A DNA stretch of 29,659 nt from a virus: positions 1 through 29,659 of IMG/VR virus record IMGVR_UViG_640427134_000001, one strand, 5' to 3'. This document shows, in pieces, positions 5,825 through 27,064 of this stretch. The position numbers were made by a program, and so were the translations under genes. The notes below the pieces were generated by a model. It was not told the origin of the DNA and did not search any database. It was given only the letters and a program-made list of their open reading frames with translations. Numbering within the stretch: position 1 is the first letter of the stretch; each line of letters starts with the position of its first letter.

Positions 5825-5853
5825 TTATAAACCTCATTGTCGTTATAAAGTGT

Positions 5854-5900
5854 TATACACATTATCGCAATGATTGTGCTACGCCCTGTTGGCGTGTTCC
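5854..5900 (-). promoter_or_regulatory. Putative phage late promoter, copy 5 (LPD1 gene)
   Basis: GGAACACGCC (5900-5891), 24 nt, GATAAT (5866-5861, preceded by TGC), A at 5854. Confidence 0.7.
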
Positions 5901-5955
5901 TAGAGACAAAAAAAAGGACCACGCTAACTGGTAACGCAACCCTTACTCACAAAGA

Positions 5956-6961: not shown

Positions 6962-6963
6962 TT

Positions 6964-7482: not shown

Positions 7483-7516
7483 CCTTCACCCCTTTACATA
7501 CACTCGAACACGCTTG

Positions 7517-8450: not shown

Positions 8451-9301
8451 TTCTTGCCTCCGTTAGATGATGCTCTTAGATTTGCTATATCGTATTTATC
8501 CCAGGCGGTTAGGGACAGCAATGTTATTTGAACCTTGATCGCGATTCTGTCACCGTTTTTATTCATCGGTGCTGTAATAGGCGCTGATAAGCTTTCAATA
8601 AACATAGGCTTGTATGTTTTACCAGCATATTGAAACTGCACAAGCGAAGGTATGGTCGATGCAAACATACCGTCAACACCTTCGCTAAGCGTACCCACCA
8701 CTAACGACGTATCTGACAATTTTCTAGGTGATGCGTATTGCTGCAATACATTTAATGCACGTTCAACTTCGGAAGCTGCATCAATCCACGCCTGAAAAAC
8801 AAGCGTCCCACTAATGCGCACCGAGCTTGAAGAAGTATAGACTTGACGGCTATTAATCTTAGTAAACGTGGATTTATCTTTTAATCCCGCCAGCTTGTCG
8901 GCAGCGTCACCGACAACGCCCTTAACCGCGCTGTCATCCGCTGTTTCTGAATCCAGGTTGAAATAACTATACATTGACGCAGGTAGTTCGCCTGATTGAA
9001 GCATCCCCATCATGGTAGGCATCCGCCCTTCTGGATTCGATGTTTCAAACGGAGTTGAATACTGGGCCTCAACTGTAAACTCACCATCTTCAAATAGCGC
9101 AGCAATAATAGTATTGCCCTCAATGGGGTTATAGGTCTGTTTGCCCTGGCCACCTTCCAAGTTATCCTCTGATACCGGTCGTATCTTGGCGATAAGTCGC
9201 TGATTTAGGCCTTTGTGCATCCAAGGCACGCCCGATCCTACTACTATGCTTTTCTTGGGCTTGCTTGCATTATCCGCCGGCTTGTTTGTATTTTTTTTCA
9301 T
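8447..9301 (-). CDS. P1 PmgG-like tail tube-fold / baseplate protein
   Basis: QYSTPF...NSRQVY...GTLVFQAW.D...EVE.AL..L...ASP...IPSLVQF...APMNKNG resembles recalled P1 PmgG. Confidence 0.6.
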   Translation of the reverse strand: MKKNTNKPADNASKPKKSIVVGSGVPWMHKGLNQRLIAKIRPVSEDNLEGGQGKQTYNPIEGNTIIAALFEDGEFTVEAQYSTPFETSNPEGRMPTMMGMLQSGELPASMYSYFNLDSETADDSAVKGVVGDAADKLAGLKDKSTFTKINSRQVYTSSSSVRISGTLVFQAWIDAASEVERALNVLQQYASPRKLSDTSLVVGTLSEGVDGMFASTIPSLVQFQYAGKTYKPMFIESLSAPITAPMNKNGDRIAIKVQITLLSLTAWDKYDIANLRASSNGGKK

Positions 9302-9303
9302 CT

Positions 9304-11115: not shown

Positions 11116-11124
11116 GCCCGCCCC

Positions 11125-13848
11125 TTATAAGTCTGATGATTCTTTATCAACTGCGCTTAATACAACATCTAACGCTTGAGTAAATAGCGGGTTGTGTTCG
11201 TCTTTTTCGCCAATAACTGTCAGCCTATCAAGGTCAATATCATCGGTACTTAAAGAGCCATCGATGATTGAATTTAGGTAATCTGTATCATCTTGGCTAT
11301 AGGCTGTTTCTGTTTGCTGCATCGCATGTCCTTGTTCAATATCACTGACTTCTTGTTCATCACTTCCAATATCCTCAGGGGCATTTACTGTGGCTACATT
11401 TTGTTCATTTAAGCTCCCGATATCTTGATTCAACCAGTTATTGGCCTTTTCAATATATTCAGGTAAGTCATTGGTATATTGATAATCGACAACTTCACCA
11501 TCTTGTGACCATTCAATGGTAAAGTCATTAGGTGATTCCTTTGCCGACTCGCCATCATAGTTTTTGAACTTGCCTTCAATTTCAACTCTTCGGTTAGATA
11601 CTTCTTTAACCGCTTGGAATACGCCTAATCCGGCATGTCTTGGCTCGATAAAAGTTGTAAAACCGAAAGATTCAGCAAGTCCATTGAGCTTTTCTAAACC
11701 TTTTTCCGTCAACACTTTTCTAGCTTCCCAGCGCTCAGCATTCGCCATAGCGTCCTCGTCATTATTGGCATAACGTGCATAAGGGTTTTCAGGGGAATAG
11801 CTGCTATCTTTGATCTCATTAAATACTGACTCAAATTTAGGATACTTGTTTAAAAGTTCAGCTTTACTGTCAAACACTTTAGGCATGCCGTAACCGCTAC
11901 CACTGTCACTATAAGCTCGTGACTGAGCATTGTTAGCATATACAGCAAAACCACCATCATCTTTACCATAAACAAGCCAGTGACTATCATTTTTACTATA
12001 CATATAGATCTTGATGGCCTGGCCTGCCTCTGTATTGCCTTGATATTCATAACGCATGCCATTTGAAGCAAATTTGATATTAGGTTCAGGCAAGTCATTC
12101 GCATTGATCGCTGCCTCCTCATTAGCTTTTTTCGAGCTACTAACAAGAACATCTAAGTAAGTCTCATAGTTACTTAGGTTCACAGTTTTATAGAATCCCG
12201 ATGGCTGTATACGCAATACAACCTCATTCTCAGCTATGTTTAACCCAAGGTTTTCAAAGGCAACAGCTCGGTTATCCTTATAACCAGTTCCCACAATTTT
12301 TGAGGGTCTTATTTGCTTGTTTACCAATTTGTGTAGCTGCGATACCGACTCTTTTAGATCATCTTGTAGGCTTTGAACTGAAAAACCAGACTCTTCATTG
12401 GAGTTTATTTTTTCTTGGTACTCACCTTCTGATATAAACGACACTCCCATTGAGGTAAGTTGTGTTTTTAAACTCTCAATATTCTGTTTAAGCTTGGTTT
12501 GTGCGGCAGTATCTAAAATCCCCAAGCCTCTTTGTACGCCATCTAGCAGTCTTTTTTTGTATCTAGGCTCAATATCCAGGCTATCTATATCAATGCTGTT
12601 AACCTGAATATTCATATCTTGCGAGCTATCATCATTTGTTGTTTCTGTCGTATCTTTGTCTGCCTTGCCTTTATTCGCTTTCATAGCAGCGTCAATCTGA
12701 TCTTTTAAGCTGGCAATATCGTTATCTAGCTGCTCAATAGTTTGTTTCTTCTTCTCAATATTGCTTTGAGCTTCATTGATATCAGCGTCACGCTTAGCTT
12801 TGCGCTCTTGAGCACGTTTAAAGTTTTTACTGTTTTTGCTGGCAAGCAACATCATTTGACGTGCAAGAGTTGGAATTTTGACGTCCTGGCCGTTAATCGG
12901 TGACAAAATAGCGGTTACGTCGCGTTTGTTTAACAGCCATTTCCAGCTAACCATCATATCGCCTGCCAGCAATTTGCTAGGCGTGCTGTCAGGGTTGTGA
13001 AACCAAATAGATAGTTTTTGGCCGTCCGATAAATCAAACACAAAAGCAACGTTTACCACGCCACCGCGTTTAAATGGCTTGGTTTGAGTGACATTGGTTA
13101 CAGATAGGGTTTCATTTGAGGCCTGGCTCATTGCTCTAAATAAGCGATCTTTGAGCATTGGCAAGCGGTTAACCGTTTCCATGATTGAGTCGAACTCGGC
13201 TTCTTCTGCCTCTAAGTCAATCAACGCTTGCTGTAAGTCAAACTCTTGTGTCAGCTCTTTAAACGTGTCAGCTCGGATCATATCTGTGTATAGATTGGTT
13301 AAGCTGCCACCATGGCTTGATAGGGTTAGGTTATCCCATTGAACATCATTAAAAGCGGCTCGTGTCGCTTCTTCTTGTAGCTCTTTTGATGTGATGATTG
13401 GTAGGTAGTGCTTATCTTGTGAGGGGTTATCTAGTAGCTTAGAGATAGCATCAATTGACCATGCTTGGTCATCTGTCATGTGATCAAACTGCATACCTTC
13501 GGCATAACCTACAAGTACGCCATAATCTGCGCCCAAACAATCAAATTGAGTGGTTGCTAGTGATAATGCATGATCTTCATCTAAAGCGCCGCCAATCGCC
13601 ACTGAGTCAACGTAATGACCGCCGTTTTCAAATAAGTTCACAACGTGCCAGCTATCATCATTACTGCCAGCTTTTGCATCAAAGCCCAATCCGTCAAAAC
13701 CAGTCTCGTCAGCGATCAAGGCCAGCATATCTCGGTACTCACCTTCGATAAAGCCAGTCTCATAACGGCTGTAACGCGTCTGTTCGTTACCGTATCGATC
13801 TTCTGTTAATTGGTTGGCGTGCGCTGTGCCTGTTTTAATGTAAGACAT
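11125..13848 (-). CDS. darA: DarA (defence against restriction A)-like internal head protein
   Basis: DarA N-domain KPFKRGGVVNVAFVFDLSDGQKLSIWFHNPDSTPSKL...SWKWLLNKRDVT, a coiled coil, and a DarA C-domain-like DTDYLNSIIDG...LFTQAL. Confidence 0.88.
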   Translation of the reverse strand: MSYIKTGTAHANQLTEDRYGNEQTRYSRYETGFIEGEYRDMLALIADETGFDGLGFDAKAGSNDDSWHVVNLFENGGHYVDSVAIGGALDEDHALSLATTQFDCLGADYGVLVGYAEGMQFDHMTDDQAWSIDAISKLLDNPSQDKHYLPIITSKELQEEATRAAFNDVQWDNLTLSSHGGSLTNLYTDMIRADTFKELTQEFDLQQALIDLEAEEAEFDSIMETVNRLPMLKDRLFRAMSQASNETLSVTNVTQTKPFKRGGVVNVAFVFDLSDGQKLSIWFHNPDSTPSKLLAGDMMVSWKWLLNKRDVTAILSPINGQDVKIPTLARQMMLLASKNSKNFKRAQERKAKRDADINEAQSNIEKKKQTIEQLDNDIASLKDQIDAAMKANKGKADKDTTETTNDDSSQDMNIQVNSIDIDSLDIEPRYKKRLLDGVQRGLGILDTAAQTKLKQNIESLKTQLTSMGVSFISEGEYQEKINSNEESGFSVQSLQDDLKESVSQLHKLVNKQIRPSKIVGTGYKDNRAVAFENLGLNIAENEVVLRIQPSGFYKTVNLSNYETYLDVLVSSSKKANEEAAINANDLPEPNIKFASNGMRYEYQGNTEAGQAIKIYMYSKNDSHWLVYGKDDGGFAVYANNAQSRAYSDSGSGYGMPKVFDSKAELLNKYPKFESVFNEIKDSSYSPENPYARYANNDEDAMANAERWEARKVLTEKGLEKLNGLAESFGFTTFIEPRHAGLGVFQAVKEVSNRRVEIEGKFKNYDGESAKESPNDFTIEWSQDGEVVDYQYTNDLPEYIEKANNWLNQDIGSLNEQNVATVNAPEDIGSDEQEVSDIEQGHAMQQTETAYSQDDTDYLNSIIDGSLSTDDIDLDRLTVIGEKDEHNPLFTQALDVVLSAVDKESSDL

Positions 13849-13931: not shown

Positions 13932-14216
13932 CTATTCGTCTATTTCCGGCGCACCGATTCGACTGATCCATACCTCGTTAACGCCCTTGTTGAAAACGTC
14001 CTCTACCGTTAGATAGTCTGGGTTGTTAATGTCACGGCCTAGCATGCCAGGGTAGCTTAAATTGGTTACCTTAAACGGCTTGTCGGTACGACCGCGCTTA
14101 AAGCGACCAATAATTAGCCCATTTTGAGTTGAGGGAACCTGGGTTGATTCCGTCTTGTCGTTTACGTCGCCTCGCTGCACGCCAACAGCGGTTGAAATAA
14201 TTTTAGTTTCAATCAT
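13932..14216 (-). CDS. 94-aa protein resembling the N-terminal domain of contractile tail sheath proteins
   Basis: GVQ...LIIGRFKRGRTDKPFKVT..SY..MLG...YLTVEDVFNKGVNEVWISRI follows the sheath N-terminal pattern; AGGA RBS. Confidence 0.7.
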   Translation of the reverse strand: MIETKIISTAVGVQRGDVNDKTESTQVPSTQNGLIIGRFKRGRTDKPFKVTNLSYPGMLGRDINNPDYLTVEDVFNKGVNEVWISRIGAPEIDE

Positions 14217-14225
14217 GATTAATCC

Positions 14226-14894
14226 TTAGCTTGAGAATGATAAAGGTCTTAGTTTTTCAAAAGTAACCGGTATTTCTACCAATTCGCTTCTGCTACTTGC
14301 TGATAATTCAATGCTTGCTGACTTAACACCAACTATCCATGATTCCTGAACAGCAATTCTTCTGGGATCATTGGGGTTTAACAATGCCACCGTTAGTTTA
14401 AACGCATAGCTTTTTGTTTCGTTCATTGTTCCATCGTTGTTAAACGCAAGCCTGCGACAAGCTTTGTATGATTTAGAGATATCTCCTTTGGCTGTTTCGA
14501 TAAAGGTGATGTCCATTTCACTGCTTGTTTGTTGGGTCAAGTAGTTCGCCTGGTAAGATCCAGCTTGATAGCTTTCAGACTCATTAGAACCTAGCGACAA
14601 TTCAGCATTGGTGGCAAGGTAGCTAAGCGTTTGATCCTTAAACCAGGGTATATCCCCTTTATGGCCAAATATGTTTTCTATTTTTACCTTGTAAACTGCC
14701 TTGATCAACGCCTTATGAGCTTTAACCCTTCCATAAATGCGGGCGTACTCTTCTAGTAGGTTTTTGCTTACAGTATTATCAACTGCGCTACCCGTTTTTT
14801 GAGCTGCATTACTGACTAAGTTGAAGGCTGTTTCTCTAAAGTCATTGCCAGCTGTAAAGTCATGGTCGATTAACTCGCTAACTAAATCCAGCAT
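14226..14894 (-). CDS. P1 Tub-like tail tube initiator / tube-fold protein
   Basis: ESYQAGS...T....EMDITFIET...AFNNDGT.NE.KSYAFKL...IPVTF resembles recalled P1 Tub; TAATG-coupled to the portal gene. Confidence 0.62.
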   Translation of the reverse strand: MLDLVSELIDHDFTAGNDFRETAFNLVSNAAQKTGSAVDNTVSKNLLEEYARIYGRVKAHKALIKAVYKVKIENIFGHKGDIPWFKDQTLSYLATNAELSLGSNESESYQAGSYQANYLTQQTSSEMDITFIETAKGDISKSYKACRRLAFNNDGTMNETKSYAFKLTVALLNPNDPRRIAVQESWIVGVKSASIELSASSRSELVEIPVTFEKLRPLSFSS

Positions 14895-16522
14895 TACTTG
14901 TCATCCCAAAACATATCATCATCCACATCATCATCTACTGGCATTTCCTCACCCGGCATCGGCTCTTCACCTGGCATGCCAGCTTCTTGGCCCATTAGCC
15001 CGCCTTGCTCATCTGCCGGTCTGGCTGATAATCCTGCTGCCACACGCTCTGCTAGATTAATATCGGCCCCAAACACATCCTCTAGCATTAATTGGTTGGT
15101 TTCCTTGTCAAAGCCTAGTTCACGAAGGCCGGCAAGCGATTGGGCCACAATAGCGAGCGTATTAGCTCTATTTTGCTTGTTATTAAGCATTTCAGTAGCG
15201 GCCGCTGATTGATCGCTATAAAAATCAAATTGCCAGGGGTAGTCTTGAGGCTCGAACCATTCGTTATACTTAATACCCCAGTGTATGCTCATTAAGTGGT
15301 TAAATGCGTCAATACAAGCTTGTCTGATTAGCATTGACCGTCTCATAACTTGCGCTGATGTATGGAAGGCTGCACCGTCACCCAGGCCACCTGCCAGCAT
15401 ATCGGCCCAGCCAATTAGTGATAGATCCATACCCAGGCCACCGGCTAAGCGCCGTAAGTTGATCATTAATATGCCTTCATTCAGTGGTGCTACGCGTTGC
15501 GCTAGATCGCCTACTGACTGAATCACTTGCTTTTCGCCATACTGCGGTAGTACGTGGTATTTTGTACCGTACAAAGCCTCACCGCCGTCAAACGCATCTT
15601 GAATTTGATCGCGGTAGCTCTTTAACATTTTAGTTAACGAGCTGATATAGCCTTGTCTTTGTTTGGCTGGCATGCCTTCCATATTAAGCGTTAAAAAAGC
15701 CTGTTTTACGCTGTCTGCAATTTGCTGGTTGTTAAGGCCAGCACGACTAATGGTTACGTCTCTCCACGCGTCCTCAATAGCATATAAGAATGAGCCGCCT
15801 ACCTCTGACGGTAGGATTGGGTTATCGGATCTTAGGTCATAAACAAGCGTTGTTCTATCCTGCCATACGTCTAAGGCCATTTGCGGTATGTTCTCAATAC
15901 GAGGCATTTTAACTCTAAGCATTTGTTCTAATGACAACTTGGCAATAGTACGCTGCTTATCTTCATCTTCTAAGGCGTGAAAGCCAATAGTGCGCCCTGC
16001 TTGCTCAAACGGCATGATTAATGAAGGCTGGGTAAAGCGGTTATTCATTAAATCAAGCACGCCTTTGCGCTCGTCTGTATAGATACGAGCATAACTATCA
16101 CCATAAGCAATAGCCTGGCGTGCCAGCGAGAATACATGACGATTGATTAGGGGTGCGATATGTTTAGCTTCACGCTCAACCTTTTTTCTAAGCTCTTTGG
16201 CTCTGCGGCCGCCTTCTCTGATGTGATCGTTTGGTGTGATAAAAATCATATCACCGGTTGACTCATGGCCGCCTAAAGCTGCGGTAACATGTAAGCTTAA
16301 CGCCTCTGAAACTTGAGGGTCTGCCTGCATGATTTCCCACATCGTATAAATCTGTCTGCGAGTACGCGGCTGCTTTGCCTTGTGATGAAAGGTGCCAAGT
16401 TCAAACGGATTGGTAGCCTCATAACTACGATCCACATCGTCAATAGTAGGTATTTTCTCTGATATTCGAGCTTGCCTATCATCAATTAAAAAGCTTGCTA
16501 GACGTTTTCTAAAATTCATCAT
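14894..16522 (-). CDS. prt: Portal protein (P1 Prt-like)
   Basis: 542 aa; R.QIY...E.M...P.VSEALSLHVTAAL, AYGDSYARIY, PSLIMPFE..G...GF and LGMDLSLIGWADMLAGGLGDG resemble the recalled P1 portal; acidic tail. Confidence 0.8.
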   Translation of the reverse strand: MMNFRKRLASFLIDDRQARISEKIPTIDDVDRSYEATNPFELGTFHHKAKQPRTRRQIYTMWEIMQADPQVSEALSLHVTAALGGHESTGDMIFITPNDHIREGGRRAKELRKKVEREAKHIAPLINRHVFSLARQAIAYGDSYARIYTDERKGVLDLMNNRFTQPSLIMPFEQAGRTIGFHALEDEDKQRTIAKLSLEQMLRVKMPRIENIPQMALDVWQDRTTLVYDLRSDNPILPSEVGGSFLYAIEDAWRDVTISRAGLNNQQIADSVKQAFLTLNMEGMPAKQRQGYISSLTKMLKSYRDQIQDAFDGGEALYGTKYHVLPQYGEKQVIQSVGDLAQRVAPLNEGILMINLRRLAGGLGMDLSLIGWADMLAGGLGDGAAFHTSAQVMRRSMLIRQACIDAFNHLMSIHWGIKYNEWFEPQDYPWQFDFYSDQSAAATEMLNNKQNRANTLAIVAQSLAGLRELGFDKETNQLMLEDVFGADINLAERVAAGLSARPADEQGGLMGQEAGMPGEEPMPGEEMPVDDDVDDDMFWDDK

Positions 16523-16530
16523 TTGTGCCC

Positions 16531-17202
16531 TTATCTTGGCCCAGAAGTTGAGCTGCTACCACTTCTAACACCGCCGTGAACGTGGCCTTTTAGTGATATA
16601 CCGCCACCAACTACGTCATTACTTGCGGACATAGTGCCTTGAGTCTTGATATTGCCTTTGGCCACCATGGTTCCATCGGCGGTAATGCCGCCACTGGCTG
16701 ATATATTACTGGCAGTAGATACATTGCCCTTAACAGACATAGTGCCAGTTGTGCTTTGGCTGCCGGTATGGTTAATCTTTGCTTTAACATTCATGTTATC
16801 GGCCGTTATAGACACTGTACTGGCATCAATGGTCACGCTTTGGGCCTGCATTTGTATCAGGTCTTTTGCTGTCAAAGTAATACGAGCTCTTGCCAGCAAT
16901 TCAATGTTTTGCTGTCTTATGCGGCGAACGTCAACTACCGCTTGGCCACCGCCATGACGACGGTAAAAAGCGATCACCGGCATTGAGGTATCGCCTTGCT
17001 CAAAAAAAACCCATACGTCGGCACCTGGTAGCAATTCACGCTCGGTATCAAGATCATCATCACCGATTGGATAAGCCAGCATAGCGGTAATACCCTCCGG
17101 CACCCCATCGGTTAACCCGGCTATTGCTACATTGGCCGTTCTATTAGCCTTGTCATAAGACACCAGCTTGGCTGGGTGAAAATATGGTGATATTACGCTC
17201 AT
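16531..17202 (-). CDS. Baseplate spike (gpV/gp5-like)
   Basis: OB-fold motif (GADVWVFFEQGDTSMPVI), Gly/Ser/Thr beta-helix repeats and the apex metal motif SLKGHVHGGV. Confidence 0.9.
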   Translation of the reverse strand: MSVISPYFHPAKLVSYDKANRTANVAIAGLTDGVPEGITAMLAYPIGDDDLDTERELLPGADVWVFFEQGDTSMPVIAFYRRHGGGQAVVDVRRIRQQNIELLARARITLTAKDLIQMQAQSVTIDASTVSITADNMNVKAKINHTGSQSTTGTMSVKGNVSTASNISASGGITADGTMVAKGNIKTQGTMSASNDVVGGGISLKGHVHGGVRSGSSSTSGPR

Positions 17203-18107
17203 TTCTCGCCCTCTAATTGTGCAAGCCAGGCTTGAGTGGCCATTATCGGCCTGCCACCTAAAGCTCCAGTATCGTAACGATGCGCTGCGGTTAAAACCAC
17301 CAGGCTATCTTGGCCATAACCGTCATCAATAGTTACCACACTACCAGCGTTCAACCTATCATCAAGCTGTCTTACCATCTTGGCCTTAGTCACTAAGATA
17401 CGACGCAAGTTTTGCAATTCCCTGGCATCTGCTCTTGGGTAATAGCCTACTTGCTTGTTGTTAAGTGGTGAACCTAAGATATCCGATCCGTTATCATCAA
17501 CTGATAAAAAGTTAGTGTTACCATGCGATAAAACATGGGGGTTATCTATCCACTGTAAAGCACTACGATCGTATATAAGCGACTCACCTTTGAACAAATC
17601 ATTAATGCGAGTAACAGATATTTCGCCGTCGCTATACATAGTTACAGCTGCTTCTTTTTGTAGCGATATTGCTATTCTTTTTGTCGGTAACTGGCCCTTT
17701 AAGCATATAAACTGATTTAACTTGATATCGCTTTTTAATCGTATCTTTGCACCCAGGACCCGATAAACCTCGTTAAAGCTTGTATCGTTTAGTGACGTGG
17801 CCCTACTAGCTACGCTTAGCAGCGGCTCGCAACCCGATAACACAGCAATAATAATTAATCCGCCCACACGCTTTCCTGCCTTAACCGCCTGCATATTTAT
17901 ATGCTGTGATTTGACGATTGTTAAGCTGATGCCGTCGCCAACTATCAGCTTATCGCCAATCTTTAATAGTTCTTTTAGCTCGTCGGTAGCTTTAACTACC
18001 ATTTCAAGAGACACGGGGACCGGTACCAAGTCAGTACGATAAATCGCACTAATAAGGTCACCGCCGCCAATAGTTGAGCCGTCCGATAAAACTATCTTCA
18101 CTTCCAC
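17199..18107 (-). CDS. Putative baseplate hub protein
   Basis: 302 aa, coupled directly upstream of the spike, with a hub-like C-terminus (LNAGSVV...VVLTAAH). Confidence 0.55.
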   Translation of the reverse strand: MEVKIVLSDGSTIGGGDLISAIYRTDLVPVPVSLEMVVKATDELKELLKIGDKLIVGDGISLTIVKSQHINMQAVKAGKRVGGLIIIAVLSGCEPLLSVASRATSLNDTSFNEVYRVLGAKIRLKSDIKLNQFICLKGQLPTKRIAISLQKEAAVTMYSDGEISVTRINDLFKGESLIYDRSALQWIDNPHVLSHGNTNFLSVDDNGSDILGSPLNNKQVGYYPRADARELQNLRRILVTKAKMVRQLDDRLNAGSVVTIDDGYGQDSLVVLTAAHRYDTGALGGRPIMATQAWLAQLEGEK

Positions 18108-18616
18108 GAACCGTTATAGTTAATTTCAATACTTTGCAGGCTATTAAACGTACTATTGCCTTGCTTAGCTTCAAGATCAGCCGTGCTATCAACGCTAAAA
18201 GGGTGTGTATTAAACGCCTCCCTTTTCATTTCTAGCATAGCTTCTCTGTGGTTTTGGTAGGCCTCACTTGAGCTCATGCCAACCGGCTGAACCCCTAAGT
18301 TTTGAGCGCCTTCCATGCGTTTAGCTTGCATAAGGTCGCACTTAGCCACAACAACAGGCCTAATAATGCTCCATTCGTCGTTGTAGATATTTGTTGTGCT
18401 ATCAAGAAGTAACGTATAGGTATCATCTTTATCATCAAGATCATACGCACGTAACGCACCGCCCCATGCCAGGTAATCACGGCAAACATCAACAATAATA
18501 CGCTCTACATCACTTTCAAGAAGTGAGTAGCCGGTCGTATATAACTCTTCATAAAATCGAGTGGCGACACTCTTAATATCGCCCTCGATGTAACTGTCTT
18601 GTCTGCTAGTAAACAT
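18098..18616 (-). CDS. Virion morphogenesis protein, possibly a head-tail adaptor
   Basis: Helical 172-aa protein tightly packed in the structural operon; function inferred from size and position only. Confidence 0.45.
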   Translation of the reverse strand: MFTSRQDSYIEGDIKSVATRFYEELYTTGYSLLESDVERIIVDVCRDYLAWGGALRAYDLDDKDDTYTLLLDSTTNIYNDEWSIIRPVVVAKCDLMQAKRMEGAQNLGVQPVGMSSSEAYQNHREAMLEMKREAFNTHPFSVDSTADLEAKQGNSTFNSLQSIEINYNGSWK

Positions 18617-18627
18617 ACAGGCTTACC

Positions 18628-19248
18628 TTAACCAAATGTAGTGGTGCCACCAATGGTAGAAACTGGTTTATAGCCACCAAATGCGTTTAATGCGTTGGTC
18701 AATAGGCCGGCAAGTTTGTCAGCAGTACCGGCGCCAATATCACCAGTTTGGCCAAAGTAGTTATAACGGCAAGTTACTTGAACCTGTAAGATCTGGCTGC
18801 GGCTTGCTGAATCAATCTCACCACCACCATCAGGGAAGGTGATCGCACAGTCTTTAAGCAAGTATTCAGTCTTACCTTTAATCTCATTACCATCGGTAGC
18901 GAACCCATCATAAACACGCACCAGTGGGATCTCGCCATTGTGTTTAATAACGATATCTTCTGCAAACTTAGCGATGGTGCCTGATTCAGTTTCAATCATG
19001 GTCCACTGGCCTTCAAAGTTTGTTTTAGGCGGTGCGGTAACGTGGGCCTGGAAGCCGTAAGCATAATCTGCGTCGGCTGGCTCGTGGTTGGTTATCATTG
19101 GGCGCTGGAAGTTTTGAATAAGGATATAAAGGTTTTCGTAACCTTCTGGCTTACAAATTGCGTTACAAGCAAGCATAGCTGAGCCCAAAGACTTGGCCAG
19201 CTCGTGCATTTGAGAATAGGCTTGCAAGGTAGGTGAAGAACTTTTCAT
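18628..19248 (-). CDS. Tail tube protein (P1 BplB-like)
   Basis: GYENLYILIQNFQRP...IETESG.I..F...LKDCAI...RYNYF resembles recalled P1 BplB. ATG 19248 (AGGG RBS) is preferred over TTG 19266. Confidence 0.7.
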   Translation of the reverse strand: MKSSSPTLQAYSQMHELAKSLGSAMLACNAICKPEGYENLYILIQNFQRPMITNHEPADADYAYGFQAHVTAPPKTNFEGQWTMIETESGTIAKFAEDIVIKHNGEIPLVRVYDGFATDGNEIKGKTEYLLKDCAITFPDGGGEIDSASRSQILQVQVTCRYNYFGQTGDIGAGTADKLAGLLTNALNAFGGYKPVSTIGGTTTFG

Positions 19249-19250
19249 AG

Positions 19251-19323
19251 AAATAACCCTAATCAATAATAAGTGATAGGGATATTTTGGGGTATAAAGG
19301 TATTGAGCTTTTAGGGGTGTTCC
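19251..19323 (-). promoter_or_regulatory. Putative late promoter copy 3 with imperfect RBS-masking hairpin (tube-portal operon)
   Basis: GGAACACCCC (19323-19314), 24 nt, CAAAAT (19289-19284), A at 19277; imperfect IR at 19251-19265/19274-19287. Confidence 0.75.
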
Positions 19324-19368
19324 TGAAAATTTTTTAGTGCCTCTGGTTCAAGAATCAAAACAATTTAA

Positions 19369-19377
19369 TGATATAAT
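19369..19377 (+). promoter_or_regulatory. Extended -10 sigma70 promoter of the DsbD_2 moron
   Basis: Perfect TG-A-TATAAT about 100 nt upstream of the TTG start. Confidence 0.6.
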
Positions 19378-19480
19378 CCTTGATTTCTTCCTCCTCACTT
19401 TAGAATACGATATCGATACTAATACTGTGAGTGATTAAAAAATCAAATATTATGGGTCAAATTGACTACAAGGATTAAAA

Positions 19481-20305
19481 TTGACAACTCCTTTATTATT
19501 AGCAGCATTTGCTATGGGCTTTTTTGGTTCACCACATTGTTTGGGTATGTGTGGTGGCTTGGTTACCGCTTTTGGCCTATCTATGCAAGAAGTAAGCCCA
19601 CTAAAGAAAAGAGGGCTTATTGCTACTTATCACTTTGGTCGCCTGGTTAGTTACTCAATTCTAGGGGTTATTGCAGGTATTGTGGGCACCACGGTCTTAG
19701 CCCCACTATTAATGGGTAACTCAACCCCGCGTATTTTACTGGGTCTGGTATTGGTATTCATTGGCCTATCTATGCTGGGCATGCCTTTTTTAAATAAGCT
19801 TGAAAAAGTGGGCATGGGCGTTTGGAAAAAACTCTCCCCTTTACGTCAAAAAGTTTTCCCAATAACTACCTTCCCAAGGGCTTTAGCAGCGGGTTTATTA
19901 TGGGGCTTTTTACCTTGTGGCTTGGTCTATGGCGCTCTACTGATGGCCGTTGTCGGCAATAACATCGCAACTGGGGCTTTATTAATGTTTGTCTTTGGCT
20001 TAGGCACGGTTCCCATGTTGGTCGCTACCCAAGAGACTGTGGGCTGGCTACACAAACAAATTGGCCGCTATAAATTACGTCAATTAAATGGCGTCGTAAT
20101 GATTTTGTCAGGACTGGCAGTAATTGCCCTGCCTATAGCCATGCATAGCATGGGTGGACACGGCGATCACGGCTCGCATGGCGCACATCAAATGCATGAT
20201 GATTCAGCGATGATTTCTACTACGCACGACCACTCTCAAGATATGCACGGTTCTAATACTGAAGAGCATCATAACCATGATCACTCACATGCTAACCATC
20301 AGTAA
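19481..20305 (+). CDS. DsbD_2 / TauE-SafE-like metal-handling membrane protein with His-rich tail (moron)
   Basis: GSPHCLGMCGG, YHFGRLVSY, LWGFLPCGLVY and FGLGTVP motifs, 6-7 TM helices, His-rich C-terminus; AGGA RBS at 19471-19474. Confidence 0.9.
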   Translation: MTTPLLLAAFAMGFFGSPHCLGMCGGLVTAFGLSMQEVSPLKKRGLIATYHFGRLVSYSILGVIAGIVGTTVLAPLLMGNSTPRILLGLVLVFIGLSMLGMPFLNKLEKVGMGVWKKLSPLRQKVFPITTFPRALAAGLLWGFLPCGLVYGALLMAVVGNNIATGALLMFVFGLGTVPMLVATQETVGWLHKQIGRYKLRQLNGVVMILSGLAVIALPIAMHSMGGHGDHGSHGAHQMHDDSAMISTTHDHSQDMHGSNTEEHHNHDHSHANHQ

Positions 20306-20316
20306 TTGAAAACGCA

Positions 20317-20952
20317 TTAATATGGAGATAGATAAGCCACATGATAGCGATAGCCGCCAGCAGCAACAGCAACATCAACCTGGCTGAAATCAACAGAGAC
20401 AGCAATTTCAGGTACGATATTCCAGGGAACCAGCTTTTCTAAGACGGGGGCAATATCTGAAATATCACTATTGTTATCATTAAGCGTTAATGCAATACGC
20501 ACACGGCTAGTTAAAAACGAGCCTGGCATTTGCTTTTCGCTTACTGCTACTGGGTAAGCATTTGCCAGCTCTTTTGAGTGCCAAAGCCTCAATACCCTGT
20601 TATTTCCAGGAAACAGCATGTTTAGTACGAACTGCAAAAAGTCTAGGCCACGGCCGCTGGCCATACCCTGCCAGGCAGATAAGATCATAGCCATAATATC
20701 AGTTGATAGCCCTTCTGTATCTTGTCTCAAGATCACCAGTCCGTTAAGCTTACTAAATCGCTCAATAACAACTGGGCTGCTTTCAAGCCATGGCGCACCA
20801 TAGCTATTCATATCAACCAAGCCTTCAAGCTCGTATTCCTCAATCAGCTTAGTAAAAACACCTGCAATGGCTTCATCAAGCTCGTTTGCCTTATGGCTCT
20901 CTTGTACCGTTCTAGTAAAGTCGGCAGCCTGTAATTTGCTTGTTCTACCCAT
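20317..20952 (-). CDS. Baseplate wedge protein (P1 gp16-like)
   Basis: Immediately downstream of the BplA-like gene; contains RGLDFLQFVL...LWHS...YP...FLTSRVRI. Confidence 0.6.
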   Translation of the reverse strand: MGRTSKLQAADFTRTVQESHKANELDEAIAGVFTKLIEEYELEGLVDMNSYGAPWLESSPVVIERFSKLNGLVILRQDTEGLSTDIMAMILSAWQGMASGRGLDFLQFVLNMLFPGNNRVLRLWHSKELANAYPVAVSEKQMPGSFLTSRVRIALTLNDNNSDISDIAPVLEKLVPWNIVPEIAVSVDFSQVDVAVAAGGYRYHVAYLSPY

Positions 20953-20953
20953 T

Positions 20954-22426
20954 TTACAAAGTCCAAATAGCTGTGCCAGTGTCGGCCGTTCTTGTCATGT
21001 CGATAGTAATGCTATCCTCTGTGATATAAGCCCATTCATGCGGTTTAATGGGGTTTTTAGCAGTATCTTCTGTTAAAACTGAAAAGTCACTAATACGGTC
21101 CTGGAAGGCTGTAATATCACTTCTAATCTTAATGGCAATTTCTTGTTTATTAAAACCGTCTGGGCTGTGGTAGCTTGATGATAGCGAGCCTTTACCAAAG
21201 TTTTCTAGCAGCAACTCTTTGATTTGAGTCTTTACTGAATCCATATCATGCACCGAGGCCAAACGGCCAGCAATGGTAATCTTATAAGGTCTTTCTTTAA
21301 CCTCTTTGATATTAACCTTACCATCTAGCAGCGTATCAGCATTGGCTACCAGCTTCTTAATATCTTCTACCAGCGCCTTTTGCTCAATCTTGTTTTTAGC
21401 TACCACGGTTAAAAATAGATGGTTGATTGCGTCCAATGAGGCCCCGTAGTGCTTCTCATTGATCGTCTCATTCCAAATGGCCATGTAGTCAAAACGCTGC
21501 ATAAAGTGCTTGCGTACTAAAAAGTCAAAGTTACCCATGAAAACGGCGTTATGGTCATACATTGAAGGGTAGCTGGCAAGTAGTCGCATTTGAGCCACGC
21601 TTAACGGATCTGCGCCGGCTCGAACAAGATCACCGGCTTTGAAATATAGGTTTAACTTGCTTTCCTCTGACTCGTAAATCTCACTCAAGGCCGCGCTGCT
21701 TAGGCTTGATTGGTCAACATACCCATAGCTTTGAGTGATTGCGATCTCGTAGGTATCACCGGCTTGTACTGTCACGCCGGCACGTTCGGAGTCGCCAAAA
21801 ACAATTGTTATATCTTCAAGGTTATGGCTTTGTAGTGTATAAGCCGCCTGGCCCAAACCGGCGTTCATAAACTTGGGCGTGTACTGAAAATTCATACCCA
21901 AAGTTGCGTTATAAACTGACAAACTCGATAGATAGGCGCCGTCGGTTGTTGATACGTCTAGGCGATAAAAAGACTCACTAACAGGTATGTTAACCTCAAT
22001 ATGATTAACAGTGCTTTGCTCTGCTAGAACCTTTTTGGTTTCATGGCCGTTTAGCGTTGCTGATGACATAAGACGCCATTGTCTGCCCGTACCGTCCTCA
22101 ACTAAACGGCCCTGGCTCAAACTAACCTTGCTATTCCCATTGTTCTCAATAGTTAGCATGTACTGGCAAGGCGTGGCAACTGGCAATATACCCTTGTTGA
22201 TAGCATCTGCAATGATCGTGCTTTGCTTAGACTTGATAAACGGCTCTGTAATGTTTACCTGGTTATCACGCGATAGCCATAAGACAGTTTCCACTACCGA
22301 AGTCATCATAGCTCTTACTGTGGGATCGCCAGCTCGCCAGCGTTCTGCAACTTCTGGATAGTCGTTTAAATGACTGTCTATACTTGATAGTATCTTTTTT
22401 CTTAGCTGGTTACTGGGCACTGACAT
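20954..22426 (-). CDS. Baseplate J-like wedge protein (P1 BplA-like)
   Basis: About 490 aa with EPF...STI.A.A..KG, IVFGD...G and GADPLS...R motifs. ATG 22426 has AGGA 8 nt upstream, preferred over TTG 22444. Confidence 0.72.
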   Translation of the reverse strand: MSVPSNQLRKKILSSIDSHLNDYPEVAERWRAGDPTVRAMMTSVVETVLWLSRDNQVNITEPFIKSKQSTIIADAINKGILPVATPCQYMLTIENNGNSKVSLSQGRLVEDGTGRQWRLMSSATLNGHETKKVLAEQSTVNHIEVNIPVSESFYRLDVSTTDGAYLSSLSVYNATLGMNFQYTPKFMNAGLGQAAYTLQSHNLEDITIVFGDSERAGVTVQAGDTYEIAITQSYGYVDQSSLSSAALSEIYESEESKLNLYFKAGDLVRAGADPLSVAQMRLLASYPSMYDHNAVFMGNFDFLVRKHFMQRFDYMAIWNETINEKHYGASLDAINHLFLTVVAKNKIEQKALVEDIKKLVANADTLLDGKVNIKEVKERPYKITIAGRLASVHDMDSVKTQIKELLLENFGKGSLSSSYHSPDGFNKQEIAIKIRSDITAFQDRISDFSVLTEDTAKNPIKPHEWAYITEDSITIDMTRTADTGTAIWTL

Positions 22427-22739
22427 TATAGTAATCCTGATCAATATCGGTTATTGGGTTTTCATTTAGCTGAATATCAATACCGCCAATAGATAAGATG
22501 ACGTTAATCGTATCAAATCCCACTGTTTCAATGGATATGCTTAACTGATCTTCATCTAGTGTATTTATTATCGGTATATCGGCCCTAAGCTTGCTTAAAA
22601 ACTCGTCTGCTACATCGGCGGACAACTCTTTTAGCAGCATGGCCTTGGCATCTGCGCCATAGCCTTGAGCAAAATAACCGTTAGGTGGCGTGTCCAACCA
22701 ATGAATAATCATCTGTCTAATGTGTTCGGCGGTAATCAT
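22410..22739 (-). CDS. Baseplate wedge / sheath initiator (GPW/gp25 fold, P1 gp26-like)
   Basis: HWLDTPPNGY..QGYG...L...L...FLSKLRADIP; directly upstream of the J-like gene. Confidence 0.7.
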   Translation of the reverse strand: MITAEHIRQMIIHWLDTPPNGYFAQGYGADAKAMLLKELSADVADEFLSKLRADIPIINTLDEDQLSISIETVGFDTINVILSIGGIDIQLNENPITDIDQDYYNVSAQ

Positions 22740-23176
22740 TTGATACGCACCTCGGATAATGGGGTATTGGGGTCTGGTAGTCTTATCTTAGATCTTGTCT
22801 TTTTGGCCTGGGTTATAAGCTTAGACGCATCAACAAATCTTGAGTTCTTAATGCAAACTAACAGTATATCAAGCCATACAAAAAACGATCCTAGAATGGC
22901 CATAATAATAAGCAAGCCAGCGCCGCCAATACCCCATGACTGCGATATAACCATCACGGCATAAAAACGCCATAGCAAGAACATAAGCAATATTAAAAGT
23001 GGCACGCTTAGTAATAGCGATTGACGCAAGGTTTGACCGATAGCCACGGCCAATGTATTGCTATCAATAACTTTGTTGAGTAGCTTTAATCTGCTAATGA
23101 TATCTACATACAAGTAAAACATCATAATCATTAACATACCGCTTAAAAAAAAGTCCACTATATAGGCGTTTTGCAT
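22736..23176 (-). CDS. Three-TM membrane protein, function unknown
   Basis: Three hydrophobic segments and a basic tail; AGG RBS; ATGA-coupled to the next gene. Confidence 0.65.
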   Translation of the reverse strand: MQNAYIVDFFLSGMLMIMMFYLYVDIISRLKLLNKVIDSNTLAVAIGQTLRQSLLLSVPLLILLMFLLWRFYAVMVISQSWGIGGAGLLIIMAILGSFFVWLDILLVCIKNSRFVDASKLITQAKKTRSKIRLPDPNTPLSEVRIK

Positions 23177-23185
23177 ATCACTACC

Positions 23186-23725
23186 TTATGCTGCGTTTTG
23201 CTGTTTTACTTTCTCTAATTGAGCCTCAAGATCTTGTTTTTCTTTGGTCTTAACTGTAATTACTTTATCCAGCTCTGCGGCCTCTTCCAACAGTGATTTT
23301 AACGTTTGAGCTTTGTTGGCTGGCGCTCTATTACGCTTAGTTCTTGTTACCTGGGCGCGGGCTCGCCGGGCACTAAATGCCTTTTGGCCCTGGCTAACAA
23401 GTTTTGCGATCTCGTCAACTGATGCGTTGAATGACGGCTTGTAAGAGTTATCAAAGTCACCGGTAGTTGGCTGTGTTTTGCTGTTAATATCAATACGGAA
23501 AATATCCAGCCCATCCGGCTGATCTGATTCAGGGGCTTCTCGAATATAAAGCTTTACAACCTGGCCGCCGTCTAAAGCGATATGAACAGGCCTGGCACTG
23601 GCACCAGATACCCTCGATACTCTTAAAACATCCACCACAACAACTTGCTGCCTAGCTGTTTTGGCCAAACGCTTAACAAAGTCGCTGACAAGCGATGTTT
23701 TTTCTGTGATTTCTGACAGTTTCAT
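23186..23725 (-). CDS. hdf: Hdf-like protein (DarA N-terminal-domain paralogue)
   Basis: R.SG...RPV...LDGGQVVKLYI...DIFRIDINSK..P plus a C-terminal coiled coil, as in recalled P1 Hdf. Confidence 0.7.
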   Translation of the reverse strand: MKLSEITEKTSLVSDFVKRLAKTARQQVVVVDVLRVSRVSGASARPVHIALDGGQVVKLYIREAPESDQPDGLDIFRIDINSKTQPTTGDFDNSYKPSFNASVDEIAKLVSQGQKAFSARRARAQVTRTKRNRAPANKAQTLKSLLEEAAELDKVITVKTKEKQDLEAQLEKVKQQNAA

Positions 23726-23730
23726 AAAAA

Positions 23731-23802
23731 AATAACCCCAAACAAATTAAATGATTGGGGTTATTATGACTTGCTGTTAGCTGTTATTAGTTGGGGTGTT
23801 CC
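23731..23802 (-). promoter_or_regulatory. Putative late promoter copy 2 with RBS-masking hairpin (hdf-baseplate operon)
   Basis: GGAACACCCC (23802-23793), 24 nt, CATAAT (23768-23763), A at 23756; perfect 11-bp IR at 23731-23741/23755-23765. Confidence 0.8.
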
Positions 23803-23808
23803 AACAAA

Positions 23809-24705
23809 TTACATGCCAACACTGCGGCGGTAGTGGCTTGCTTTTAGGCCGCGACGCATATTGCGTGCTTTTTGTGGGTCAATGTTATAGATATTGCGCT
23901 GTAAGCCTTTAGCAAATGACATCATACGCTTACGAACCGCTGAACCCGTGGTTGATTTTCTGCGAGCTTTTTTAAGGGCTGCTTTTTGGGCTGCACTCAA
24001 GCGAACCTTGCCAGCAATACGCTTGTTAACAACCTTGATTTTACCATCACGAACCGCTTTGACTGCTTTGTAAGTAACGTTTTTACCGCCTACTTTGCGG
24101 CGTATTTTACGGCCAACTGTTAAAGGTTTTTTGGCTGCGTCGTACATGCCTTCATCTTCTTCTTTCATCATTGCGTCATAAGTGGCTTCGTCACCGTATG
24201 CAAACACTGAAATAAAGTCGTCTAGCTCGTCATCGGCTGGCATGTTCTCTAAGATGATCTCTGATGCTGTTTCGATCGCCGCGTCTGCAATATCAACATC
24301 GCTATCAAACACATCATTAATCAAATCTTCATCAACGCCTAGAGTACTCATAGCGTCTGCGATATGGGCTGATAAGATTGTTTTTACAGTTGAGTCGATT
24401 TCGTCGTCGTCATCTTCTGGATCTTCAACAAATGACTCAAGGATTAGGCTATCCAATAACTCACTTGGTAGTAGCTCTTGGTCCTCAAAATCAACCTCTG
24501 ACATGATGCCAGCCAGCATGAAGGCTACTTGCAGTGCTGCTAAGCGCATTTGAGTGGTTGAGTGCGCGGCGATGCGCTCGTCGATCGGGTCAAAATCAAT
24601 AGATTCTGCCGCTTGTTTGGCGCTGTTAGTTGCGTCAAATTGCGCCTCTTGACGCTCTAACATGCGATCCTGGTTACGCTCGATAATATGGCTTGATACT
24701 AACAT
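23809..24705 (-). CDS. P1 gp21-like protein (acidic N-terminal part, very basic C-terminal part; possible prohead core protein)
   Basis: VRDGKIKVVNKRI...RLSAAQKAALKKARRK..TG matches the recalled P1 gp21 C-terminus; it follows the sheath gene as in P1. Confidence 0.7.
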   Translation of the reverse strand: MLVSSHIIERNQDRMLERQEAQFDATNSAKQAAESIDFDPIDERIAAHSTTQMRLAALQVAFMLAGIMSEVDFEDQELLPSELLDSLILESFVEDPEDDDDEIDSTVKTILSAHIADAMSTLGVDEDLINDVFDSDVDIADAAIETASEIILENMPADDELDDFISVFAYGDEATYDAMMKEEDEGMYDAAKKPLTVGRKIRRKVGGKNVTYKAVKAVRDGKIKVVNKRIAGKVRLSAAQKAALKKARRKSTTGSAVRKRMMSFAKGLQRNIYNIDPQKARNMRRGLKASHYRRSVGM

Positions 24706-24738
24706 TCTTTATTTCCTTTTACTGATCAATAAACTGCA

Positions 24739-26112
24739 TTACTTAGTGATTGTGGTTTCAAAGTAAACTTGTCGAGCACAACCTTCGGGGCGTTTAACAA
24801 GTCTAATATCAACTTTTTCAAACGGGTTATCTGCTCGTGGTGCCACTTCTAAGCCGTATAGCTTGCCTGATAGCTCTGCTACTGGCTGTAACAAGCCAGC
24901 TGAACTACAAGCGTTTAAGAAGCGGCGGATCTCTGCGTCTGCGTCATTGATGTAGCTAGTCATACCTTTAAGTAAGTGCTTTTTAGCAATGCTAACTACT
25001 GCGTTATCAACGTAAGTGGTAATTTCAGATGCGTTGATTAAGCGTAAAGCACTTGTTTTGCTATCGTATTGAGTAATAGCGTCACCATAAATCCAGCGAT
25101 CGCCTGCATCAAAGCGCTCATTCAATACCACGTTCACGCCAGCTGAAGCCAGTGCGTTTTGGGCCTCTTCATCAAGGCTAACGCTTGGCATGGTTTCCAT
25201 ATCACGGAAGCTAACAGGGAAGTCATAACCGGCAACAGGGCGGTTAACAGGTGGAATACCAGACGCATTGGTAAGGGCGTTACGAACAAGTAATTGGCCT
25301 AGGTAGTCACCGACACAAGGGCGCCATTTTTTGCGTGATAGTACGCTTGCGCTGTTTGAAGGGCGTGATACGTTCGGGTTCCAAAAAACCCAAAAACGGT
25401 GGTCTTTAATGTTGATAGATTCAGCAAGGGCCGCCGCTGCTACCCAGTCGTTGATCTTACCCAGATCCAGTAATACGTGACAGTTAAGCTTATCCATTAC
25501 CTTTGTTGTGGCTTCGATAACCGGCATGTCATCGGTTGAACAAACAACAATGTAACGTGGGCGTTCACGCATATCAATTAAAGTGCGTGTGATCTGCTCG
25601 GGTGTTGGCTCTACAACCTTGCTGGCTGGCACGTCAATGACAATTTCAGCCTTGCGGTATGTACCGTGGTCTTTTAGGGCCTTAACAGCTTTCAGCGCAT
25701 CTACAACCTGAGCCGCGTTATCTTTAGAATAGGTCGTTTCGACTTGTTCAAAGAAGTCATTGCTGCTATCTAATGCACCATGAAAATCAAGCTTTTGCGT
25801 GATGTATGAGAAGTCGTTTGGATAGTTGTTTTCAAGCTCGTCTGCACCGCCGCCAGTGTATAAACGGCCTTGCAGTGAAGTGATCATACTATCATCAACT
25901 TTATCAGCAAATGTAATGTCAAATAACAGGTTATTTAACGGGTCAGCTGCGTTAGTTGGTGTCTTATCATCAACTACTTGAATCTTGGCCACGACGTTGT
26001 GGTCAAAGCCGTATTCAGTAACAAGCTCGATAGTTGCTAATGCCTTACTTTCCTTGCTATTGGTAATAGTAACGGAAGTAGGCAGGATATTAATAAACAG
26101 TTGAGTTGCCAT
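24739..26112 (-). CDS. Contractile tail sheath protein (P1 gp22-like), apparently lacking the usual N-terminal domain
   Basis: PVAGYDFP, LASAGVNVV, IYGDAIT, SALRLIN and C-terminal VKRPEGCARQV sheath motifs. Confidence 0.8.
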   Translation of the reverse strand: MATQLFINILPTSVTITNSKESKALATIELVTEYGFDHNVVAKIQVVDDKTPTNAADPLNNLLFDITFADKVDDSMITSLQGRLYTGGGADELENNYPNDFSYITQKLDFHGALDSSNDFFEQVETTYSKDNAAQVVDALKAVKALKDHGTYRKAEIVIDVPASKVVEPTPEQITRTLIDMRERPRYIVVCSTDDMPVIEATTKVMDKLNCHVLLDLGKINDWVAAAALAESINIKDHRFWVFWNPNVSRPSNSASVLSRKKWRPCVGDYLGQLLVRNALTNASGIPPVNRPVAGYDFPVSFRDMETMPSVSLDEEAQNALASAGVNVVLNERFDAGDRWIYGDAITQYDSKTSALRLINASEITTYVDNAVVSIAKKHLLKGMTSYINDADAEIRRFLNACSSAGLLQPVAELSGKLYGLEVAPRADNPFEKVDIRLVKRPEGCARQVYFETTITK

Positions 26113-26117
26113 AAAAA

Positions 26118-26183
26118 ATGCCTATATTGGTGAATATAGGCATAGTATAGAGTTGGGCTAACAGTATTGTTTAGGGGTGTTCC
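26118..26183 (-). promoter_or_regulatory. Putative late promoter copy 1 with RBS-masking hairpin (sheath operon)
   Basis: GGAACACCCC (26183-26174), 24 nt, TATACT (26149-26144), A at 26137; perfect 11-bp IR at 26118-26128/26133-26143. Confidence 0.8.
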
Positions 26184-26197: not shown

Positions 26198-27064
26198 CTA
26201 CCTCATTTGTTGTACCTCACCGCGCGGGCAGGTTCCCCAAACTGGAGGTACGATATTTTCATAGCCTTCCCAACCTTCGGGTCGAGTTGGGATTTTAAGC
26301 ACACACCACTCAGATAGATCTTGATTGAACTCACCGGCAAAGTTGAATGTGTTATTCATGTTTTCAACATTTGACACGTTCCAACCGCTGATATCTTGGT
26401 TAAAAGAACTTGCCTGCGTAAACATGCTTTTCATGTTGGTTACGTTTGATACGTCCCAGCCGCTAATATCTGTATTGAAGGTATTAGCAATAGCAAACAT
26501 GCTGTCCATATTAATTGCTGAGCTTGTTTTCCAGTTTTCAATACCTACAATATCTTGGGTTTGAGCATAGAAAAACGTTTTCTCAAAGTTAGTTACGTTT
26601 GATACATCCCAGTGAGATAGGTTTTGACCAATATAAGTCGATTTGTACTCTTCTTCATTGAAAAAAGCGGAGCTTAAATCAGTTACATTTGACGTGGCCG
26701 CAATATAAATATTATCTACTGCGTCCTCTTTAGTGTAAACGCTCAAATACGCTGTTGGATCGCCGTCCGAGAATACATGAGTCTCACCCTCTGGTACGCC
26801 AAAGTTATAGACAATACCGGTATCAGTGGCTTTATACCAACCATGACCGGGATAGTCTTTATCTAGGCCTACGTCGTTCATAGCGGGCGGCTCAACCTCA
26901 ACGTCTGGCATGTTCATAAGGATTTCGACCTTATCTTCCAAGCCTCTTAAATTGGCTTTGATTTGATCAAGTTGGCCAAATACTTCCTTCATACCCTGAC
27001 CAAAAATACCCGCCAAACCCTCTGTAAATTTCACCATTTCATCATGTGATACTAATTTTTTCAT
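26198..27064 (-). CDS. DUF285 / BspA-type (PARCEL) repeat protein with N-terminal coiled coil
   Basis: Roughly 25-aa repeats LSHWDVSNVTNFEKTF, ISGWDVSNVTNMKSMF, ISGWNVSNVENMNNTF; GGAGG RBS. Confidence 0.88.
   Translation of the reverse strand: MKKLVSHDEMVKFTEGLAGIFGQGMKEVFGQLDQIKANLRGLEDKVEILMNMPDVEVEPPAMNDVGLDKDYPGHGWYKATDTGIVYNFGVPEGETHVFSDGDPTAYLSVYTKEDAVDNIYIAATSNVTDLSSAFFNEEEYKSTYIGQNLSHWDVSNVTNFEKTFFYAQTQDIVGIENWKTSSAINMDSMFAIANTFNTDISGWDVSNVTNMKSMFTQASSFNQDISGWNVSNVENMNNTFNFAGEFNQDLSEWCVLKIPTRPEGWEGYENIVPPVWGTCPRGEVQQMR

Follow-up and report, generated by a model that had tools for sequence, protein, structure and literature searches.

Background

[quoted passage not shown] Several position-specific sheath paralogs can be present in one sheath, as for Afp2/3/4 and Pvc2/3/4 of the extracellular contractile injection systems. 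No relevant paper on a phage sheath split in this way came up in a literature search. In this report, we analyzed a stretch of 29,659 nucleotides, hereafter the window, of the IMG/VR virus record IMGVR_UViG_640427134_000001. It forms the initial 29.7 kb of a provirus of 111,412 bp with a completeness rating of 100%, a P1-like Psychrobacter prophage of which copies occur in a Psychrobacter metagenome-assembled genome (100% identical) and in P. sanguinis CCUG 59771 (95% identical). The central result is that the sheath protomer of this prophage very probably consists of two polypeptides, a body of 457 amino acids (aa) and a separately encoded N-terminal module of about 90 aa, one form of which is a 94-aa open reading frame (ORF) of the window.

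The sheath protein of phage P1, gp22 (529 aa; PDB 9AY3, 8JAN, 8JAJ; phrog_1036), is a single chain. In the solved P1 tail, residues 3-34 form the handshake arm, residues 35-99 and 243-425 together make one globular domain II, and residues 100-242 form the exposed domain III (PMC10304247). The N-terminal arm pairs with the C-terminal arm of a neighbor in a handshake mesh, and every solved contractile sheath uses such an N-terminal arm (PMC10304247). The provirus sheath has the same fold and the same domain order as gp22, within a shared phage background of portal, DarA/DdrB/Hdf-like genes and a P1-type tube. It differs from P1, where the sheath is one chain and no free module exists, in that the chain is cut at residue 99/100 and the N-terminal piece is present in three copies.

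The same split occurs in Acinetobacter phage vB_AbaM_ABMM1 (OQ471969), whose Gp12 (431 aa) is a body and whose Gp14 (92 aa) is a module; this phage has been cultured, is temperate and infectious, and its relaxed and contracted tails were seen by transmission electron microscopy (PMC10345192). Both proteins were annotated 'tail sheath protein' and the split was not commented on (PMC10345192). The ABMM1 body covers phrog_1036 positions 93-530, and its module is 40% identical to the 94-aa ORF. In contrast to the provirus, ABMM1 has exactly one module gene, downstream of the body gene. A 95-aa ORF that follows the ABMM1 portal gene, in a position like that of the 94-aa ORF, was considered as its counterpart and proved unrelated (14% identity).

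Results

Two genes cover complementary parts of a P1-type sheath

A preliminary description of the window had proposed that the tail sheath is split, with the N-terminal domain in the 94-aa ORF and the remainder in the 457-aa ORF, about 10 kb away in another operon. The two ORFs have the positions and lengths then given, with the correction that both lie on the minus strand (Table 1). The 94-aa gene does stand 10.5 kb from the body gene, in the portal operon, as the last of a run formed by the portal gene, a 222-aa ORF and itself.

On the 531 positions of phrog_1036 ('tail sheath'), the 94-aa ORF covers 8-67 (E 2.8e-5) and the 457-aa ORF 111-531 (E 6.9e-64). The fused 557-aa homolog P0237 is divided in the same manner, the 94-aa ORF aligning with residues 5-90 (41% identity, E 1e-20) and the 457-aa ORF with residues 111-557 (34% identity, E 2e-70). 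Coverage is complementary and non-overlapping, as had been expected, and the two lengths add up to about a full P1-type sheath: 551 aa, against 529 for gp22 and 557 for P0237. When 138 modules were combined into a profile, it lined up in register with residues 7-66 of gp22. Because the module corresponds to this part of gp22 and the body to residues 100-518, the cut falls, in terms of the P1 domains, exactly at the boundary between domain IIa and domain III. The model of P0237 (predicted local distance difference test (pLDDT) 82.3, predicted template modeling score (pTM) 0.83), which aligns to gp22 residues 34-517 with Z 27.6, has a disordered arm (1-27), a confident beta-alpha-beta segment (30-95) and, at the split point, a low-confidence linker (96-102). 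Production of a fused chain by frameshifting is implausible, as 10.5 kb separate the genes here and their frames differ in a related locus, L045.

A profile built from nine fused sheaths and run on the provirus matched at four places and no others, once in the body (profile 203-545) and once in each of three N-terminal pieces (3-91, 3-96 and 5-108). A full-length sheath gene elsewhere in the element had been named as an observation that would speak against a split; this search of the complete provirus found neither a second nor a full-length one.

Every sequence match of the 94-aa ORF is a sheath N-terminus, and its alignments with the fused homolog, gp22 and phrog_1036 all agree with the assignment first made. 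The ORF thus appears to correspond to the N-terminal handshake arm and the first domain II segment of a P1-type sheath. Over its first 88 codons, comparison with orthologs gave a ratio of non-synonymous to synonymous substitution rates (dN/dS) of 0.02-0.07, with synonymous sites near saturation, which indicates strong constraint. Neither the 94-aa nor the 457-aa ORF has a Pfam match at E 0.1 or better, and PDB sequence searches with both pieces returned chance matches only.

The sheath body lacks an N-terminal arm

The best structural match of the AlphaFold 2 (AF2) model of the body (pLDDT 85.3) is the P1 sheath: residues 1-446 of the model align with gp22 (9ay3_A) residues 100-518 (VIA-align; Z 18.6, root mean square deviation 5.7, 387 residues aligned). 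Seventy-five chains were found at Z >= 8 and, among the matches listed, all are sheaths. In other long sheaths the alignment also starts well inside the chain, at residue 86 in T4 gp18, 102 in phiKZ, 95 in phi812, 97 in phiCD508, 96 in Lin1278 and 93 in DSY3957, so the 457-aa ORF is indeed devoid of the N-terminal segment. Upstream of its ATG the frame stays open for only three more codons (open frame 460 aa), and there is therefore no hidden N-terminal extension.

The body consists of the exposed domain III, the second domain II segment, domain I and the C-terminal arm; the N-terminal arm and domain IIa are missing. The core fold of domains I and II, of the gp22 type, is present according to both the structural alignment and the phrog_1036 match. 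The C-terminal arm is present as well: the body aligns with the fused homolog to the last residue (457 to 557), and its model ends in a strand (E449-456), while the gp22 structure can be aligned only up to 446/518, in keeping with a mobile arm. The N-terminal handshake arm and the first domain II segment are not in the same chain as the core and are encoded separately.

Table 1. Sheath genes of the provirus and elements of the body gene leader
Feature	Position	Strand	Matches and remarks
Stand-alone sheath N-module (P0001), 94 aa	window 13932..14216	-	P0237 residues 5-90; module profile hidden Markov model on gp22 7-66; phrog_1036 8-67
Sheath body (P0002), 457 aa	window 24739..26112	-	phrog_1036 111-531; AF2 model versus gp22 100-518; single copy
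130-aa N-chain (L003)	provirus 30866-31258	-	56% identical
417-aa N-chain (L004)	provirus 32825-34078	-	52% identical; C-terminal 325 residues are DGYxP-type repeats
Body gene leader	window 26113..26183	-	GGAACACCCC box 26183-26174; TATACT 26149-26144; putative, read from sequence
Body leader inverted repeat	window 26141-26120	-	GCCTATATT/AATATAGGC; T-run ending at ATG; putative

Ribosome-binding sites had been ascribed to both ORFs. The 94-aa ORF has one, a Shine-Dalgarno sequence AAGGA 6 nt before the ATG, and the 457-aa ORF has no obvious one. The leader of the DarA-like gene (window 13924-13849, minus strand) has the same layout as the putative body gene leader (Table 1), in which the GGAACACCCC box is followed at a distance of about 24 nt by a -10-like hexamer and next by a hairpin and a T-run up to the ATG, and no AGGAG-type ribosome-binding site is present. 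The hairpin after the 94-aa ORF is scored as a terminator by a terminator scan; we dropped this assignment, since the same box, hairpin and ATG arrangement precedes the body gene, which makes the hairpin at least also part of a leader.

N-terminal modules form a family with many C-termini

The provirus encodes three paralogous N-modules, two of them beyond the end of the window and upstream of the body gene. The 94-aa ORF is thus a sheath N-terminus, as proposed, but not the sole candidate partner of the body, given the 130-aa and 417-aa paralogs. The longer of these carries about ten DGYxP....L-type repeats, a region with no family, ESM Atlas or PHROG match, and the 40-residue tail of the 130-aa chain holds one such unit (DDGYIPDY).

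A search of 1.84 billion representatives with the module profile yielded 296 clusters, in which the module almost always occupies residues 1-90 of proteins of 94 to 1106 aa. Fused sheaths account for only 2 of the best 150 module matches. The other C-termini that follow the module fall into 47 unrelated groups, including immunoglobulin (Ig)/PKD arrays, DUF285 (BspA-type leucine-rich repeats, LRR) and a concanavalin A-like lectin domain. When other modules were compared with the Pfam family Gp18_domIII_N, only two sub-threshold matches appeared (E 0.081 and 0.004). The arm motif is kept in all modules, with G12 invariant and Q14 conserved in at least 90%. Values of pN/pS were 0-0.23 for the module segments of the 130- and 417-aa paralogs, 0.04-0.17 for the body and 0.28-0.87 for the payloads; the modules of all three paralogs are thus under constraint similar to that on the body, and the payloads change faster.

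The split is conserved in relatives

A body-only length of about 458 aa is maintained in some 90 clusters, down to 46% identity, and fused relatives are few (10 clusters). Gene maps were drawn for about 25 loci, taken from genomes of Psychrobacter, Moraxella, Faucicola and Acinetobacter, from IMG/VR and from metagenomes; in these, one to four module genes lie upstream of the body-only gene on the same strand. The layout of the provirus recurs in P. sanguinis and in several IMG/VR contigs. In locus L053, the module stop codon overlaps the body start by 4 nt (ATGA), in L045 a gap of 5 nt separates the two genes, and in both a Shine-Dalgarno sequence lies inside the end of the module gene. Coupling by an overlap or a tiny gap is the usual layout of subunits made in equal amounts. 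Free module genes were absent from P1 and Xanthomonas phage Rb1, the two complete fused-sheath genomes on which this comparison rests, metagenomic fused-sheath contigs being at most 7.6 kb long.

In many relatives, a variable gene of about 157-244 aa that resists annotation separates the body gene from the last module gene, as in L039:10360-11094 and L049:10237-10710, or in the gaps of 530-820 nt in L013, L031, L035, L041 and L042. In L039 this gene overlaps the module gene by 4 nt and is thereby coupled to it. No PHROG family matches the variable gene, and the provirus lacks a counterpart, its slot being filled by a coiled-coil ORF, a 784-aa ORF and a DUF285 protein.

The 19 split bodies all fall into a single clade (support 94/96) when a maximum-likelihood tree is built from a conserved core of 330 residues, with the fused forms and gp22 outside it, so that one change is needed on the core tree. 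A tree of 92 module columns has the same deep partition. In the latter, paralogs of one genome often group together although their payloads are unrelated, a pattern that co-evolution with a single partner would produce. The split is accordingly conserved in relatives, a point on which the preliminary description had asked for evidence, and its suggestion of an independent split fits the core tree, where a single clade of split forms is nested within the fused ones.

Of the T6SS sheath, TssC chains align to the core of the body (model 166-446, Z 12.5-13.3); the split itself is seen here at the level of the genes. Both ORFs are without a Pfam match and so lie outside the TssB/TssC families, and they are surrounded by genes of phage type (for portal, tube, baseplate, Dar proteins and integrase), with no T6SS genes nearby. 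As the core tree places the split within the P1-type phage sheath lineage, it would be independent of, and convergent with, that of T6SS. Afp and Pvc paralogs differ from the present ones in being complete sheath subunits, whereas here only the N-terminal piece is multiplied and the copies share one body.

Discussion

A proposed two-chain sheath protomer

We propose that the body gives the exposed domain III, the larger part of domain II, domain I as the tube-facing wall and the C-terminal arm, and that a module of about 90 aa gives the N-terminal arm together with the beta-alpha-beta segment completing domain II. The module would dock on the body by fold complementation and would then be woven into the lattice through its arm. 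Three N-chains would be available for this, the bare 94-aa chain of the window and the 130-aa and 417-aa chains beyond its end. This two-chain protomer is the most economical reading, because the body alone can neither make the four-stranded handshake nor complete domain II, and the missing parts are found only in module genes. The module ends where the one-piece chain leaves the core for the surface domain, and parts fused after it should for that reason sit outside the tail. The extended paralogs, as well as the Ig/PKD, DUF285-LRR and lectin versions of relatives, thus most likely decorate the tail surface and enter the sheath by way of the same socket.

The preliminary description had left the choice between a two-chain subunit and a dedicated sheath cap or initiator. 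A two-chain subunit is favored, because the body has no N-terminal arm of its own and because there are relatives that have a single module gene and a single body gene, in some cases translationally coupled.

Several points weigh against the proposal. We infer the physical pairing of the two chains, and the 94-aa gene is distant from the body gene, within the operon of the portal gene. The main partner of the body may therefore be the 130-aa form, which belongs to the more widely kept size class (117-135 aa, present in most relatives), and A. boissieri has only long module proteins, the shortest open frame being of 195 aa. The 92-column module tree places fused N-termini among split ones, and more than one split, or a re-fusion event, may have occurred. 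Contigs from the RNA libraries of three studies cover both genes, a coverage that cannot prove transcription or its level. As for ABMM1, the text of the paper does not name the two structural proteins seen by LC-MS/MS (PMC10345192).

Alternative roles for the modules

The strongest alternative, which we nevertheless consider unlikely, is a division of labor in which the 130-aa form is the bulk partner of the body and the 94-aa form occupies special positions (for example, the ring under the terminator or by the baseplate) or acts as a cap or initiator. The class of about 117-135 aa is indeed found in nearly all Psychrobacter and Moraxella relatives, the bare form of 92-94 aa is absent from several of them (G002, G003, G009), and the two genes are in different operons here; moreover, the top sheath ring of P1 contacts the terminator by way of the same four-stranded sheet (PMC10304247). 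Set against this, a bare module of 92-94 aa is next to the body, or is the only one, in ABMM1, M. atlantae, L042, L045 and L053, so the bare form can be a bulk partner. The 94-aa ORF also has the same arm and domain IIa residues as the other paralogs, and no Pfam match relates it to the gp25/TssE-type initiator families or to terminator families. Regarding the N-chain that would fill most positions in a two-chain sheath, the genes point in two directions, the bare form being a neighbor of the body in several relatives and the 117-135-aa form being more widely kept in Psychrobacter.

Modules might otherwise be generic docking adaptors that bind elsewhere, on the baseplate, neck or fibers, with the body polymerizing without an N-terminal arm. 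Fiber-like or adhesin-like payloads on most family members, and the two fiber-like genes flanked by the 417-aa and 130-aa genes in the provirus, agree with such a role. We hold it to be quite improbable, because the body would then do without the N-terminal arm that takes part in the handshake in every solved contractile sheath (PMC10304247), and its domain II would miss an integral beta-alpha-beta segment. Furthermore, free modules were found only in genomes with a module-less sheath, P1 and Rb1 having none, and coupled module-body gene pairs exist.

A further idea, that a sheath gene was rearranged and left the 94-aa ORF behind as a decaying relic, the prophage tail being defective, could draw on the position of this ORF apart from the body gene and beside head and Dar genes of no relation to it. 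It can be dismissed for practical purposes, in view of the ORF's intact frame, ribosome-binding site and dN/dS with synonymous sites near saturation, the recurrence of the layout in P. sanguinis and several IMG/VR contigs, the 296 clusters that contain the module, and the infectivity of ABMM1 with its split sheath.

Possible implications of a split sheath

If the two-chain protomer is real, a stably inherited sheath of this type would be an independent natural experiment on where the subunit can be cut and still assemble and contract, and would suggest how TssB/TssC may have arisen. The cultured member ABMM1 makes the proposal directly testable. For genome annotation in the split clade, short 'hypothetical' ORFs would be sheath parts, and the gene labeled 'tail sheath' would be incomplete alone.

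It is also conceivable, although here our doubts slightly outweigh our confidence, that the split made the sheath a modular display scaffold, the vacant socket of the body allowing any protein led by a module of about 90 aa to be woven into the lattice. In that case, the whole tail could be decorated with exchangeable Ig, LRR, lectin or repeat domains by duplication of a small gene, and the sheath would parallel TssB/TssC by convergence while having gained a further function. Payload-bearing paralogs, if truly incorporated, would offer a natural handle to display foreign domains along the whole phage tail.

Genomic context of the sheath genes

The surroundings are P1-like, with integrase, DarA_N, DdrB-ParB and Hdf-like proteins, portal, P1-type tube and baseplate genes. 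A near-DNA search of the phage collection gave no match. On the minus strand, the gene order is the 417-aa gene, two fiber-like genes, the 130-aa gene, the coiled-coil ORF, the 784-aa ORF, the DUF285 protein and the body, followed 10.5 kb on by the portal, the 222-aa ORF and the 94-aa ORF. The DUF285 protein (BspA-type LRR; window 26198-27064, minus strand), directly upstream of the body gene, is without a module here; in other phages DUF285 is fused behind the module (for example, P0105, P0122 and P0191).

Directly after the body gene lies a 298-aa ORF (window 23809-24705, minus strand), which occupies the slot of P1 gene 21 and belongs to phrog_1053, as does the ABMM1 gene between body and module. 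The 222-aa ORF between the portal gene and the 94-aa ORF (window 14226-14894, minus strand; phrog_7274) has weak tail-tube and connector matches, and its position is where P1 carries the head protease gene pro.

The Dar gene set (P1-style anti-restriction) extends over window 3470-13848 and 23186-23725, both on the minus strand, and codes for a DarA_N protein of 907 aa, a DdrB-like protein of 603 aa with a ParB domain, a polyvalent protein of 784 aa with an LPD1 domain and an Hdf-like protein of 179 aa, the gene of which is separate from the other Dar genes, within the sheath operon. Finally, a membrane protein of the DsbD_2 family (E 4.9e-47; window 19481-20305) is encoded by the sole plus-strand gene within the tail gene block. 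In contigs of relatives from three runs, 36 other letters connect 19299 with 20327, and since these contigs bridge this interval without the gene, the 1-kb DsbD_2 gene looks like inserted cargo (a moron).

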